Source: a phage
Direction: 5' to 3' (one strand)
Sequence record: PZ166176.1
Length of the DNA stretch: 64,000 nucleotides
Notes under the pieces: model-generated
Database searches by the model: none
Seen by the model: the letters and a program-made list of their open reading frames with translations, nothing else
What the model was told of the DNA's origin: nothing
Made by a program: the position numbers and the translations under genes
Shown: piece after piece, positions 28,501 through 35,671 of the stretch
Numbering within the stretch: the first letter of the stretch is position 1
How the letters are laid out: the number at the start of each line of letters is the position of its first letter

Positions 28501-28905
28501 TTATTGAAGTTTAAGTGAACCACGAAGACGTTTCTCTTGCTGATCACGGATATATTGTGGAACCTCGTGAATTGAATCATTACCGTGCCTATTTTCAACA
28601 ACTAAAGAGATAACTTGATAACCAAACTCTTCAGCAAGAGCTAAATAAGGTTTAAGTTCTTTCTCTGTGGTTGAAGTATTAGAAACAATAATCTTGTTAA
28701 GATTAGATGCCATAGCATCACGAACAATACCCTGACACCATGCGTGTGCTTTACCTACATTTTCTGGCTTCCAATCGTAAACACCACTCTCTGTGTAATG
28801 ATATTGATCTGCCTCACAGATAGGCCAATAACCTTCAGAAATAATTTCTGCTACTGTAGATTTACCAGCACCTGAAACGCCACGTAAAATGATAAGTTGT
28901 TTCAT
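28501..28905 (-). CDS. P-loop polynucleotide 5'-kinase (T4 Pnk kinase-domain-like)
   Basis: Walker A GVSGAGKST; overall pattern parallels the T4 Pnk kinase domain (P-loop, then IIVSNTS.. block). Confidence 0.55.
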   Translation of the reverse strand: MKQLIILRGVSGAGKSTVAEIISEGYWPICEADQYHYTESGVYDWKPENVGKAHAWCQGIVRDAMASNLNKIIVSNTSTTEKELKPYLALAEEFGYQVISLVVENRHGNDSIHEVPQYIRDQQEKRLRGSLKLQ

Positions 28906-29838
28906 TTATCCTCCAAAAAAGTTTTCGATTTTTTCACGTCGTTCTTGCTGATTTAAAGCAGCCCATTGAATCTTCGTAAAATTATTTTGAATCCATTCTA
29001 ACAAAGCGTAATATTCTTCGTCAACCATTTGTTTGGCATTTTTTGGATTATCCCAAATCAGATCCCACTTTTTATCTCCACCGCGCATAAGAAACTTCTT
29101 AGTAAGATAGTGTGGTGATTTAATTTTTAAAAGTAAGTTGAACGGATAGTTTGTTTCACGAACTACAAACCCTTCGTGTTTACAATGTTTAGACATTTCA
29201 ACAACATCTGAAAACTTAACCATTGGATGAACTTCAGGACGCTTAAATTTGGTGACAGAAGCAATTCCATCAAGAGCACCTTCAGGTAACATAAAACTTG
29301 TCCCATCAGGATTTTGAATTCTGGCACCAATTAAGTATGCACCTGGTTCTTCTTCGACAATATGCGGATCAGAAGGATCACAGATTTCAAAAAGGAAAGT
29401 TGCTTTTGCACTCTCTGTCCATTTGATGAAATGTTCTATGTCATCACACTCTGAAACAATATGATTCTTTGCAATACTTGCAAAATCTGATTCAAGGCTT
29501 CCTGTTGTCGATACAATAAGTTGACCTTTATATACACCTACAGAGGCCATAAAACCATTTATTTTACGAACCACATCTACAAGTTCATCCGCTGGTAGAT
29601 CTGTGCCATTCTCAAAACGATTAAAAATCTTAGTGAAAGGCCAAATAACAACATTGTCATCAGCATCAACAACGATTCCGCGACATTCTAGAAGACGAGA
29701 ATCAATGCTCCATAAGTTATCCCAGAAAACTTTGTTCTTATACTTAAGAACAGATAGACCAGAATACTCTCCTTCTTTATATGTTTTCTTATGAACTAAA
29801 CCTTTTTCAACCAAATCGTCGCAATTAAATTTAGCCAC
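28906..29838 (-). CDS. RNA ligase-like nucleotidyltransferase
   Basis: Motif I KINGFMAS (KxNG as in Rnl1/tRNA-ligase type), motif IV EGFVVRE, motif V LLLKIK; abuts the kinase and phosphoesterase genes. Confidence 0.5.
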   Translation of the reverse strand: MAKFNCDDLVEKGLVHKKTYKEGEYSGLSVLKYKNKVFWDNLWSIDSRLLECRGIVVDADDNVVIWPFTKIFNRFENGTDLPADELVDVVRKINGFMASVGVYKGQLIVSTTGSLESDFASIAKNHIVSECDDIEHFIKWTESAKATFLFEICDPSDPHIVEEEPGAYLIGARIQNPDGTSFMLPEGALDGIASVTKFKRPEVHPMVKFSDVVEMSKHCKHEGFVVRETNYPFNLLLKIKSPHYLTKKFLMRGGDKKWDLIWDNPKNAKQMVDEEYYALLEWIQNNFTKIQWAALNQQERREKIENFFGG

Positions 29839-29839
29839 A

Positions 29840-30391
29840 TTATTCTCCTTTGATTATTTTGTGATGGTCTACAGTCACGATATCTCGTTTACTCATCATA
29901 GAAATTATCTCATCAAAATGCAAGATTTTTCCGTGTGCATCCCAACCCACATCTAACATTTTACCATAAGCTTCATCAGGGAAAGATCCGTGGGAATGCC
30001 CGTGTAGCATGATTGATCCACGACCTTGTTTATTCCAGGAGGCCATAGGGTAATGGCTTAAGACGAAGAACAGCTTCTGATATTTCACTTCGTCATAATA
30101 CACCACTTCTCCATACTCTGCAAGCACTTCTCGGTGTTTGCTGTAGTCATGGTTCCCAACACAGTAGGTGATATCTCCTTGAAGACGGGAAGCAATTTTA
30201 CGGGTATCTTCTTCAGTTCCGAAACAGAAGTCGCCCAAATGCCACATCTTAACACCAGGAGTAGTAGCACATTTGTTCCATGCTTCGATCAAGGCTTCTG
30301 TCATGTGGTCCATATCTTCCCACGGACGATATTCAGGAGCAAACTCTCGAATACGTTTATGCATAAAATGCAAATCGCTTGTAATAAACAT
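29840..30391 (-). CDS. calcineurin-like metallophosphoesterase (RNA-end-healing phosphatase candidate)
   Basis: DLHF, GDFCFG, GNHD, HGHSH metal-binding motifs. Confidence 0.6.
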   Translation of the reverse strand: MFITSDLHFMHKRIREFAPEYRPWEDMDHMTEALIEAWNKCATTPGVKMWHLGDFCFGTEEDTRKIASRLQGDITYCVGNHDYSKHREVLAEYGEVVYYDEVKYQKLFFVLSHYPMASWNKQGRGSIMLHGHSHGSFPDEAYGKMLDVGWDAHGKILHFDEIISMMSKRDIVTVDHHKIIKGE

Positions 30392-30747
30392 TAGTATAAT
30401 CCCTCGCTAAATAATTCATGGTCGTGACCATTACGCTCATGGTCGATCTGGTCAGCATTTTCCGCGATGATGTAAGCATCCGCACGACTCCACCAATTGT
30501 AATACTGATCGATAAAGCCTTGATTATCTGGTGTGCACAAAGTTTTGTTGATTACACCTGCTTCTTTCAACACGTTTAACTGTGCATATAGTACAGGATT
30601 TGCATGTCGAACACAAGGAATAATTAATTCTTCACCATTATTCAAAATATACTTATTTGCAGCACAGACGATAACACGTTGCGCATAATGACCCTCACCC
30701 ATCCAGGTAAGAGGTTGGTAACAAATGTTGTTTTCAATACCACTCAT
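30391..30747 (-). CDS. hypothetical protein
   Basis: Track ORF 118 aa; start overlaps upstream stop. Confidence 0.45.
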   Translation of the reverse strand: MSGIENNICYQPLTWMGEGHYAQRVIVCAANKYILNNGEELIIPCVRHANPVLYAQLNVLKEAGVINKTLCTPDNQGFIDQYYNWWSRADAYIIAENADQIDHERNGHDHELFSEGLY

Positions 30748-30906
30748 TGTTTCCTAATCCTCCTCTCTTAAATTATCCTCGAAAAAACTAGTATCTGGAA
30801 GTAAAAGATCATTGCTTGTGTCGGGCCAATCCTCTTCTTCTCTGTAGATAAAGTAACCTTCGTCCTCTTCTTGTTCCGACCAAACCGAATGATGCATGTT
30901 CTCTCC

Positions 30907-31251
30907 TTAGTAGTGCACACGAATCATTTTAATACCATAACGCTGCATGAATTCTTTTGCAAGCATGAATTTATCCCCAGCGGCGGGATTAGAAGTATGC
31001 ACGAAAATGGTAGGTGAACCAAAGCAAGGTTTACCAAACGCCAGAAGTTCTTCCAGGTGCAGGAAAACATCATACCCATCTTGGTCTGACTCCATACCTA
31101 AATCATTGTCAAAAGACCACTCGGTTACTCTTCGATACAGTTTAGCAGGATCATTGAGAAAGGCCATAGCTTCTTGTGACGTTTTAAACCAAATTGCATC
31201 TTCCTGTCCATAGTCGGCTGGGTTCCGCATATCATCTATCCAAACTTTCAT
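30907..31251 (-). CDS. hypothetical protein
   Basis: Track ORF 114 aa. Confidence 0.45.
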   Translation of the reverse strand: MKVWIDDMRNPADYGQEDAIWFKTSQEAMAFLNDPAKLYRRVTEWSFDNDLGMESDQDGYDVFLHLEELLAFGKPCFGSPTIFVHTSNPAAGDKFMLAKEFMQRYGIKMIRVHY

Positions 31252-35005: not shown

Positions 35006-35080
35006 GGCCCTGTAGCTCAATGGGAGAGCTGTCGGCTCATAACCGATAGGTAGCTGGATCGAAACCAGCCAGGGCCACCA
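35006..35080 (+). tRNA. tRNA with CAT anticodon (resembles tRNA-Ile2 / elongator Met)
   Basis: Hand-folded cloverleaf: acceptor GGCCCTG/CAGGGCC, anticodon loop CTCATAA, T-loop ATCGAAA, encoded CCA. Confidence 0.7.
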
Positions 35081-35082
35081 AC

Positions 35083-35157
35083 GTCTTTATGGTGTAATGG
35101 ATAGCACAGGAGTCTTCTAAACTCTTAGTCAAGGTTCGATTCCTTGTAAAGACACCA
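35083..35157 (+). tRNA. tRNA-Arg (TCT)
   Basis: Acceptor GTCTTTA/TAAAGAC, anticodon loop CTTCTAA, T-arm CAAGG-TTCGATT-CCTTG, CCA. Confidence 0.7.
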
Positions 35158-35158
35158 G

Positions 35159-35342
35159 AACATTTTAACATGAATTAGCTCAAGTGATTTGAACCCACTA
35201 CTGATCATGGTGGCAGAGAATGAGGCAAGTATGTCAGACATTATAAACAAAGGCCACGGTTATATTAGAAGACATAAATGCTCGAAGAGCACCGTTCGTT
35301 GAGAACGGGGGTTGGTGGAGTCACCATTCATGGTAAAATGTT
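35159..35342 (+). ncRNA. structured RNA of about 185 nt following tRNA-Arg
   Basis: 5' AACATTTTAACATGAAT pairs with 3' ATTCATGGTAAAATGTT (one mismatch); no ORF. Confidence 0.35.
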
Positions 35343-35353
35343 TTAAAAAACTA

Positions 35354-35384
35354 TTGACAACTAACATTATTTTATGTTAGATTA
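35354..35384 (+). promoter_or_regulatory. sigma70-like promoter (ctaTTGACAa ... TGtTAGATT)
   Basis: TTGACA and extended -10-like element upstream of tRNA-Ser. Confidence 0.45.
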
Positions 35385-35391
35385 TAAGTAT

Positions 35392-35482
35392 GGAAGGGCA
35401 AATCGACGTGGCGACGAAAACGGTCTTGAAAACCGCCGAGCTTGAAAGAGCCTTGGGAGTTCGACTCTCCCTCCTTCCGCCA
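35392..35482 (+). tRNA. tRNA-Ser (TGA), long variable arm
   Basis: Acceptor GGAAGGG/TCCTTCC, anticodon loop CTTGAAA, long variable arm, T-arm GGGAG-TTCGACT-CTCCC, G73-CCA; D-arm atypical. Confidence 0.55.
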
Positions 35483-35486
35483 GATT

Positions 35487-35572
35487 GGTAGATTGGTGAA
35501 ATGGTAGCCACGACAGTTTGCTAAACTGTAGTCGGAAACGGCGTGTAGGTTCGAGTCCTACATCTACCGCCA
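35487..35572 (+). tRNA. tRNA-Ser (GCT), long variable arm
   Basis: Acceptor GGTAGAT/ATCTACC, anticodon stem ACAGT/ACTGT loop TTGCTAA, variable arm AGTCGGAAACGGCGT, G73-CCA. Confidence 0.7.
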
Positions 35573-35578
35573 AATTAA

Positions 35579-35664
35579 GATGAGTTGGCTGAATGGTTTA
35601 AGCGGCGGACTGTTAATCCGTGTTCGAAAGAACGATATAGGTTCAAATCCTATACTCATCGCCA
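35579..35664 (+). tRNA. class II (long variable arm) tRNA with GTT (Asn) anticodon; identity ambiguous
   Basis: Acceptor GATGAGT/ACTCATC (7 bp), anticodon stem GCGGA/TCCGT loop CTGTTAA, variable arm GTTCGAAAGAACGAT with GTTC/GAAC stem, T-arm ATAGG-TTCAAAT-CCTAT, G73-CCA. Confidence 0.55.
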
Positions 35665-35671
35665 GAATTAT

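Follow-up and report, generated by a model that had tools for sequence, protein, structure and literature searches.

A tRNA-Asn gene with a long variable arm in a coliphage genome

The window analyzed here, a 64,000-nucleotide (nt) stretch of phage DNA (sequence record PZ166176.1), belongs to a Phapecoctavirus (phAPEC8-like) coliphage and carries, at positions 35579 to 35664 of the plus strand, a transfer RNA (tRNA) gene that combines the asparagine anticodon GUU with an extra hairpin arm in the variable region. ARAGORN called tRNA-Asn (gtt) with exactly these boundaries, which gives a tRNA of 86 nt including an encoded CCA end, and the Rfam tRNA model RF00005 matched positions 35579 to 35661 over its full length (model positions 1 to 71) with 62.0 bits against a gathering score of 29 (E value of 4.8e-11). 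The Rfam alignment kept the anticodon loop CUGUUAA in register and treated the variable region as containing a 12-nt insertion. An earlier note, made from the letters alone, had described a class II tRNA with GUU, G73, and CCA at this place; ARAGORN, Rfam, and the minimum free energy (MFE) fold all bore it out, the covariance model placed no anticodon other than GUU, and the stem lengths, the loop CUGUUAA, the 15-nt variable arm with its 4-base-pair (bp) stem, and the T arm had each been described correctly. The gene is already labeled tRNA-Asn in public records of related phAPEC8-like phages.

The same anatomy was obtained from the sequence, the MFE fold, and the ARAGORN bracket string. The 7-bp acceptor stem pairs GAUGAGU (35579 to 35585) with ACUCAUC (35654 to 35660) and begins with G1-C72, A2-U71, and U3-A70. 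According to the Rfam alignment and the ARAGORN brackets, the D arm (35588 to 35603) has three Watson-Crick pairs (G10-C25, C11-G24, and U12-A23), a G13.A22 apposition, and the loop AAUGGUUU. G26 and the anticodon arm GCGGA-CUGUUAA-UCCGU, with a 5-bp stem that includes G27.U43, occupy positions 35604 to 35621, and these 18 nt are identical to positions 26 to 43 of Escherichia coli asnT; the anticodon itself (35612 to 35614; ARAGORN and Rfam) reads AAC and AAU. In the 15-nt variable arm, GUUC (35622 to 35625) pairs with GAAC (35630 to 35633) around a GAAA loop (35626 to 35629), followed by the unpaired nucleotides GAU (35634 to 35636), as seen in the MFE fold, the ARAGORN brackets, and the covariation described below. 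The T arm AUAGG-UUCAAAU-CCUAU (35637 to 35653; Rfam and ARAGORN brackets), the discriminator G73 at 35661, and the encoded CCA up to 35664 complete the molecule, all on the plus strand. The layout is the standard 7/5 arrangement of acceptor and T stems, and the variable region exceeds 10 nt and forms its own stem-loop, which makes the architecture class II. Long variable arms are confined to Ser, Leu, Tyr, and Sec tRNAs according to recent reviews (PMC7609411) and textbooks, so that the arm is, as the note had remarked, unexpected in a tRNA-Asn.

The folding energy of this tRNA is unremarkable (z = −1.71, with 13 of 200 shuffled sequences folding equally well); the case for a real tRNA is therefore carried by the covariance-model score and by conservation and covariation across phages. 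These confirm the gene as a genuine tRNA with an Asn anticodon and an extra hairpin arm.

Long-arm tRNA-Asn genes form a family in viral genomes

The 86-nt sequence, used as a query, matched 716 phage records. Refolding of representatives gave long-arm Asn(GUU) tRNAs of 83 to 86 nt in Phapecoctavirus, Justusliebigvirus, Seunavirus, Tequintavirus AKFV33, Epseptimavirus, Novosibvirus, and the T4-like Jiaodavirus; the family spans T5-like, rV5-like, and some T4-like phages. Kuttervirus carries a normal 75-nt tRNA-Asn with a D arm and an anticodon arm very similar to those of the window tRNA.

Viral contigs of the IMG/VR database were scanned with sequence patterns, and the resulting counts depend on the patterns, on the matches listed, and on the ARAGORN folds. 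A first scan for an enterobacterial-type anticodon arm followed by a long gap (scan 1) identified 94 loci with 62 distinct long-arm Asn sequences, on contigs of 5 to 405 kb. When the anticodon stem was left free, at least 84 more distinct long-arm Asn genes were recovered, whose anticodon stems vary widely; this brings the two scans together to at least about 146 distinct long-arm tRNA-Asn sequences. A scan that accepted both tRNA classes found about 9 long-armed genes among 105 viral Asn genes in the matches listed, all of them in loci with at least six tRNAs; further loci that were hit again could raise this share to about 13%, so that the long-arm form makes up roughly 8 to 13% of the sampled viral tRNA-Asn genes. 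The tRNA, which had first been taken for a single oddity, is thus one member of a large and conserved viral family. Both a long-arm and a short tRNA-Asn(GUU) were seen on viral contigs L246, L048, L111, L114, L151, L159, L190, and L211; L246 gave four pattern matches, apparently two long-arm and two short genes.

Among 185,579 cellular species genomes, the enterobacterial-type pattern occurred at 26 places. Genuine cellular long-arm Asn genes lay mostly in multi-tRNA arrays (those of Micromonospora and Verrucosispora hold more than 30 tRNAs) and on phage-like contigs of metagenome-assembled genomes. Tandem matches in Saprospiraceae were discarded as pattern artefacts around normal 75-nt Asn genes, and a match in Azoarcus reflected an internal duplication. 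A BLAST search of 5,426 E. coli genomes with the tRNA as query returned no true match, only a spurious 35-nt stretch in yobD. The tRNA-Asn of the Micromonospora and Verrucosispora arrays (L216, 1207 to 1296; L217, 1920 to 2009; L221, 7704 to 7793) is 90 nt long and carries U1-A72; its variable arm has a stem of 6 bp with one unpaired nucleotide after it, a more Ser-like geometry than that of the phage family.

Individual genes of this type are annotated in GenBank and are not new, but the family of long-arm tRNA-Asn appears to be undescribed: we found no description of a class II tRNA-Asn in the searchable literature, which omits most papers in subscription journals, and reviews of unusual tRNAs, papers on phage tRNAs in defense, and a review of tRNA identity did not mention one.

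The hairpin shows the marks of selection

In the 62 distinct sequences of scan 1, a hairpin of at least 3 bp starting no more than 1 nt from the anticodon stem was present in 53, compared with 20.2 ± 3.4 in shuffled sequences and a maximum of 33 of 62 over 500 shuffles. This set contains 28 different stem-strand sequences, and a GAAA loop caps 28 of the hairpins. Covariation was assessed at four pairs in a gap-free alignment of 26 sequences. There, the variable-arm helix was paired in 92.3% of instances versus 53.8% after shuffling, and its covariation score was 0.922 versus 0.189; none of the 500 shuffles reached 0.922, and controls in which the helix was slid out of register scored at most 0.185. 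Changes on both sides of the helix were observed at all four pairs. In a relative whose tRNA is 97.7% identical to that of the window, both substitutions fall at unpaired positions. Taken together, these sequence patterns indicate that the extra arm is maintained by selection.

Identity elements point to asparagine

In bacteria, Asn identity resides in the three anticodon bases and G73 and can be transplanted into another tRNA, while U1-A72, a typical feature of bacterial tRNA-Asn, is the mark read in the amidotransferase route but is not listed as a determinant for asparaginyl-tRNA synthetase (AsnRS) (PMC9976931). The window tRNA has G34-U35-U36 and G73, with G1-C72 at the place of U1-A72. 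Across the family, G73 was found in all 62 sequences of scan 1 and in 78 of 84 among the matches listed for the free-stem scan, and U1-A72 in 40 of 62 and 59 of 84, respectively.

The earlier note had suggested that seryl-tRNA synthetase (SerRS), which ignores the anticodon, might charge this tRNA and so insert Ser at AAC and AAU codons. Ser identity does lie mainly in the variable arm and the tertiary shape, independently of the anticodon, and Ser tRNAs with altered anticodons stay serylated (PMC9976931); the window tRNA offers SerRS a class II outline, G73, G1-C72, and C11-G24. Since G73 is common to Asn and Ser identity, it does not tell the two apart. G1-C72 together with G2-C71 is described as "absolutely conserved" in bacterial tRNA-Ser (PMC9976931), and Ser tRNAs on the same viral contigs had G1-C72 in 61 of 69 cases, G2-C71 in 67 of 69, and A3-U70 in 59 of 69. 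The window tRNA has G1-C72 but continues with A2-U71 instead of G2-C71 and with U3-A70, and among the 62 long-arm Asn sequences A3-U70 occurs in only three, next to the 40 that begin with U1-A72. The arms differ as well: those of phage Ser tRNAs mostly have stems of 5 to 7 bp with one unpaired nucleotide on the 5′ side and one on the 3′ side, whereas the window arm has 4 bp, no unpaired nucleotide on the 5′ side, and three on the 3′ side. Stems of 3 to 4 bp and three unpaired 3′ nucleotides are the rule in the long-arm Asn family, as they are in co-resident phage tRNA-Tyr. The discriminator calls for tRNA-Ser were not used, as the parser looks unreliable for them, perhaps owing to the 8/4 layout that some phage Ser tRNAs are known to have.

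Tyr and Leu identities are excluded by the discriminator: Tyr and Leu tRNAs on the same contigs carry A73 (38 of 38 and 81 of 83, respectively), long-arm Asn tRNAs carry G73, and G73 is an antideterminant against tyrosyl- and leucyl-tRNA synthetases (PMC9976931). Charging with Tyr, which we considered in view of the Tyr-like arm, was rejected on account of G73 and U36; tRNA-Tyr has A73 and the anticodon GUA, with U35 as the major determinant.

Over its whole length, the window tRNA is 70 to 77% identical to other long-arm Asn tRNAs and 70% identical to the class I tRNA-Asn of Kuttervirus, compared with 66% for the neighboring Ser(GCU), 61% for the Tyr(GUA) of a close relative, and 59 to 62% for host tRNAs. 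A derivation of the scaffold from the neighboring Ser(GCU) or from a tRNA-Tyr, as the note had proposed, is not borne out by these figures; the likeness to tRNA-Tyr holds for the geometry of the arm. Once the anticodon arm and variable region are left aside, similarity is 0.76 to 0.84 to long-arm Asn, 0.75 to 0.78 to phage Ser, and about 0.75 to many isotypes, a spread that leaves the ancestry undecided. Judged by its identity elements, the tRNA most likely still carries Asn, and misincorporation of Ser is disfavored.

Hairpins in the variable loops of other phage tRNAs

Variable-loop hairpins were also found on these contigs in tRNAs for Ile(UAU), Thr(UGU), Trp, Glu, Cys, Lys, His, Gly, Pro, and others. 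Of 33 such long-arm tRNAs, 29 have the discriminator that is usual for class I members of their isotype; G73 occurred in only four, all tRNA-Trp, where it is cognate. Because cognate discriminators are kept, the hairpin appears to be an add-on to cognate tRNAs rather than the mark of anticodon-mutated Ser tRNAs, which speaks further against serylation of the window tRNA. A sample not selected on arm length had the hairpin in 7 of 91 Asn(GUU) and 4 of 13 Ile(UAU) genes, whereas for most of the remaining class I anticodons the share was 0 to 9%, in general one to three genes apiece.

Some of these genes have features of their own. Long-arm Ile(UAU) tRNAs, which have A73, carry variable arms of 20 to 27 nt with loops that contain a CAGAT(T/A)A-like motif (for example L022, 7547 to 7637; L088, 9324 to 9417; L224, 5454 to 5546; L423; and L437). 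A long arm was present in 13 of 18 Ile(UAU) genes in one set. These tRNAs recall the nematode nev-tRNA-Ile(UAU) that is misacylated with Leu in vitro. For Thr(UGU), another target of AriB from the PARIS defense system, a variable-arm hairpin combined with A73 was seen in several loci, including the T5-like L066 (4406 to 4492) and L169 (8998 to 9084), and Thr(UGU) with a hairpin also occurs in L111, L150, L157, and L208. An 87-nt gene of Salmonella phage SalP219 (L457, 254 to 340), annotated as "tRNA-Lys" with the loop CUUUUAA and not called by ARAGORN, apparently has its extra length in the D region, not in the variable region.

The tRNA cluster and a putative RNA-repair module

The tRNA-Asn gene is part of a cluster at 35006 to 36710 (plus strand; ARAGORN and Rfam) that is 98 to 99.4% identical to the clusters of related phages. 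With relaxed settings, ARAGORN returned the order Met, Arg(UCU), Ser(UGA), Ser(GCU), Asn, a degenerate tRNA-like stretch, Thr(UGU), Gly, Gln, Pro, Ile, and Met; default settings gave ten tRNAs within the window. Spacers of 4 to 6 nt flank the Asn gene, which is the only one with an Asn anticodon within the window, and the window, with a G+C content of 38.7%, uses 55 Asn codons per 1,000. A promoter-like sequence, TTGACA-18-TAGATT with an upstream TG (35354 to 35383, plus strand), lies 10 nt before Ser(UGA), the first tRNA of the Ser-Ser-Asn-Thr run; it is a consensus match only, and the number of such sites in the region is not above shuffled expectation. A terminator-like hairpin, likewise a consensus match only, follows the last tRNA of the cluster.

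In close relatives, Ser(GCU) and Asn are separated by about 224 nt (L456, 177 to 400) that include a tRNA-Tyr(GUA) gene ending in an AATTAA spacer; in the window, Ser(GCU) is followed directly by AATTAA (35573 to 35578) and then by Asn. The Tyr gene therefore appears to have been precisely deleted in the window. Elsewhere in the cluster, the class II tRNA-Ser(UGA) at 35393 to 35482 (plus strand) was called by relaxed ARAGORN and missed by default ARAGORN; it scores below the gathering score of the Rfam tRNA model and has a subthreshold score of 37 bits with the tRNA-Sec model. The degenerate stretch at 35672 to 35748 (plus strand) combines an acceptor stem of 7 bp with a T loop, TATCGAA, that departs from the consensus, and was labeled "Leu(caa)" by relaxed ARAGORN. 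The record of phage Mt1B1_P17 has "tRNA-Pseudo-GTA" and "tRNA-Pseudo-CAT" features (tRNA-OTHER) under the cluster match. Further weak tRNA-like calls fall at 36025 to 36104 and 36549 to 36626.

About 5 kb from the cluster, four contiguous genes on the minus strand (28501 to 31251) encode an AAA_33 P-loop kinase (28501 to 28905), a T4 Rnl1-type RNA ligase (28906 to 29838), a metallophosphoesterase (29840 to 30391), and a protein with a cREC_REC cyclic-phosphate-processing domain (30907 to 31251). The set looks like an RNA-repair module of the kind that phages use against anticodon nucleases, which suggests that this phage repairs cleaved tRNAs.

A tRNA-Asn that may evade host nucleases

We think it probable, on balance, that the window gene provides a functional tRNA-Asn, charged by the host AsnRS and decoding Asn, and that the selected hairpin keeps this identity while lowering binding or cutting by defense factors; within this proposal, expression and charging would be the safer parts and the anti-defense role of the hairpin the most conjectural. 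The host AsnRS would recognize G34-U35-U36 and G73, and the charged tRNA would decode AAC and AAU as Asn for a phage with heavy use of Asn codons. The short hairpin of 3 to 4 bp, usually with a GAAA cap, would lend the tRNA a class II outline with its identity unchanged, and the altered shape beside the anticodon stem could cause host tRNA-targeting factors such as AriB to bind or cut it less than they do host tRNA-Asn. The anticodon arm, being identical to that of the host, would still serve AsnRS and the enzymes for the Q34 and t6A37 modifications. AriB cuts host tRNA-Asn at 40|41 (UAAUC|C) and needs contacts away from the anticodon loop as well, and coexpression of the T5 versions of the tRNAs in the anti-PARIS set restores growth and infection, a rescue to which T5 tRNA-Asn contributes (PMC12409363); tRNA arrays in general are considered putative anti-defense units (PMC12803027). 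As three nucleotides separate the base of the arm from the AriB site, steric evasion is plausible, and the RNA-repair module and the restriction of the form to phages and tRNA arrays agree with it.

Several points weigh against this proposal. AsnRS is a class II synthetase that approaches the tRNA from the variable-loop side, where a long arm could get in its way. The AriB site UAAUC|C is exactly that of the host, and the T5-type substitutions at positions 39 to 41 are absent. Phage Bas34, a T5 relative, has its own tRNA-Asn, which may be of either form, and still needed that of T5 for rescue (PMC12409363). The T5 anti-PARIS experiments do not cover the long-arm form, because T5 tRNA-Asn is a 78-nt class I tRNA, and the tRNA-Asn of SP15 served only as a negative control in work on PrrC170. 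Long and short Asn genes occur together in seven loci. Some serylation is possible, given that E. coli SerRS reads tertiary shape and G73, and this concern is greatest for the T5-like and Jiaodavirus members, which carry both G1-C72 and G2-C71. Finally, hairpins occur in several isotypes that are not known nuclease targets, so that the hairpin may serve stability, processing, or folding more generally.

Such a role is the core of the alternative that survives best, although we regard it as rather unlikely: an ordinary Asn tRNA whose hairpin has no part in defense and is either a stabilizing or processing element or an insertion that was once fixed and then kept paired against misfolding. The hairpin would have arisen by insertion into the variable loop, an event met with sporadically among phage tRNAs of many isotypes. 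This reading would account for the low-frequency insertions in Cys, Pro, Met, His, Gly, Trp, Glu, and other tRNAs, for a minimal hairpin closed by GAAA, a very stable loop, for an unchanged AriB site, and for the insufficiency of Bas34's own tRNA-Asn against PARIS. It is harder to reconcile with the uneven distribution, since Asn (about 8%) and Ile-UAU (about 31%) are armed far more often than most isotypes and phages and tRNA arrays hold nearly all instances of the form; a constant geometry that recurs across unrelated phage families also suggests a specific benefit.

A dual identity, in which the tRNA is charged mostly with Asn and measurably with Ser and the resulting low-level ambiguous decoding is tolerated or exploited, strikes us as improbable. 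Some elements of the Ser set (a long arm, G73, and G1-C72) do stand beside the full Asn set, and the T5-like and Jiaodavirus members add G2-C71, but arm geometry and the acceptor stem argue here as they do against full serylation, and no benefit from ambiguity is visible in the sequences. Somewhat less credible still is an un- or poorly charged decoy that mimics the anticodon arm of host tRNA-Asn and soaks up or inhibits a defense nuclease without translating. The host-identical arm with its AriB site would suit a decoy, overexpressed viral tRNAs possibly inhibit AriB by competition (PMC12409363), and the tRNA-repair module suggests that the phage faces tRNA nucleases; yet the invariant G73, the encoded CCA, the intact acceptor and T arms, and the canonical T loop characterize a tRNA that works in translation, and a decoy could do without them; moreover, the demand for Asn codons is high in a phage with no other Asn tRNA. 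Least credible of all is a missense tRNA that inserts Ser throughout, for which allo-tRNAs and nev-tRNAs offer precedents of class II tRNAs charged against their anticodon: besides the acceptor stem, the arm, and the discriminators of other isotypes, the host-type Asn anticodon arm, an Asn codon share of 5.5% with no second Asn tRNA, and the difficulty of squaring proteome-wide mistranslation with conservation in more than 140 distinct sequences stand against it.

Beyond the single gene, we raise tentatively the possibility that phages and mobile tRNA arrays repeatedly turn class I tRNAs into class II-shaped ones by means of a selected variable-loop hairpin, with the amino-acid identity kept, and that this serves as a general shape camouflage against tRNA-targeting immune nucleases; Asn(GUU) and Ile(UAU) would be affected most often and Thr, Trp, Glu, Cys, and others sporadically. 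If this were so, AsnRS and other synthetases would tolerate a long arm, and the rule that reserves class II architecture for Ser, Leu, Tyr, and Sec would hold for cellular genomes alone.

Comparison with known systems

A conserved and covarying long-arm tRNA-Asn in hundreds of sequenced phages, including T5 relatives and therapeutic coliphages, breaks the class II rule. It has gone by quietly in annotation, where pipelines label such genes tRNA-Asn and leave the architecture unflagged. With the bacterial class II tRNAs for Ser, Leu, and Tyr, the window tRNA shares a D stem of 3 bp and a long arm that forms a separate helix, and with phage tRNA-Tyr also the arm geometry of a 3- to 4-bp stem and three unpaired 3′ nucleotides. 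It differs from them in having an anticodon for a class I amino acid, G73 in place of the A73 of Tyr and Leu, and neither the acceptor signature nor the arm length and orientation of Ser. An Asn anticodon and G73 inside a class II body make it a natural test of how AsnRS and SerRS discriminate between tRNAs.

The nearest precedents for a long arm with anticodons outside Ser, Leu, and Tyr are the allo-tRNAs (PMC5389517) and the nev-tRNAs (PMC3333845). The former have an 8/4 or 9/3 layout and are charged with Ser or Ala according to their body, regardless of the anticodon (PMC5389517), unlike the window tRNA with its 7/5 layout; the latter are misacylated with Leu in vitro (PMC4300185), whereas the window tRNA carries the identity marks of its own anticodon. 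As a naturally tolerated insertion site, the scaffold could interest engineers of the genetic code.

From E. coli asnT, with which it has GUU, G73, and positions 26 to 43 in common (and most family members U1-A72 as well), the window tRNA is set apart by a 15-nt variable arm with a helix, a 3-bp D stem with G13.A22, and G1-C72; in asnT, a class I tRNA, the variable loop has 5 nt and the D stem 4 bp. Functional data exist only for the type represented by the tRNA-Asn(GUU) of T5, a member of the anti-PARIS tRNA set (PMC12409363). The T5 tRNA is likewise phage encoded and lies in a tRNA cluster, and its locus, between the Cys and Asp tRNAs, is the one occupied by the long-arm form in T5 relatives: the gene is class I in T5 (L008, 7953 to 8030, minus strand) and long-armed in AKFV33 (L004, 1479 to 1561). 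We considered whether the T5 tRNA-Asn tested against PARIS was itself of the long-arm type, which is ruled out by its 78-nt class I form; this form was present in 152 phage records. In T5 tRNA-Asn, the anticodon stem departs from Watson-Crick pairing near the AriB site, whereas the window tRNA keeps the host stem and adds an arm. The two look like two designs for one problem, and they bear on how phage tRNAs escape tRNA-cleaving immunity such as PARIS, retron-Eco7, and PrrC; with an altered stem in T5 and a host stem plus arm in many of its relatives, the designs can be compared directly.

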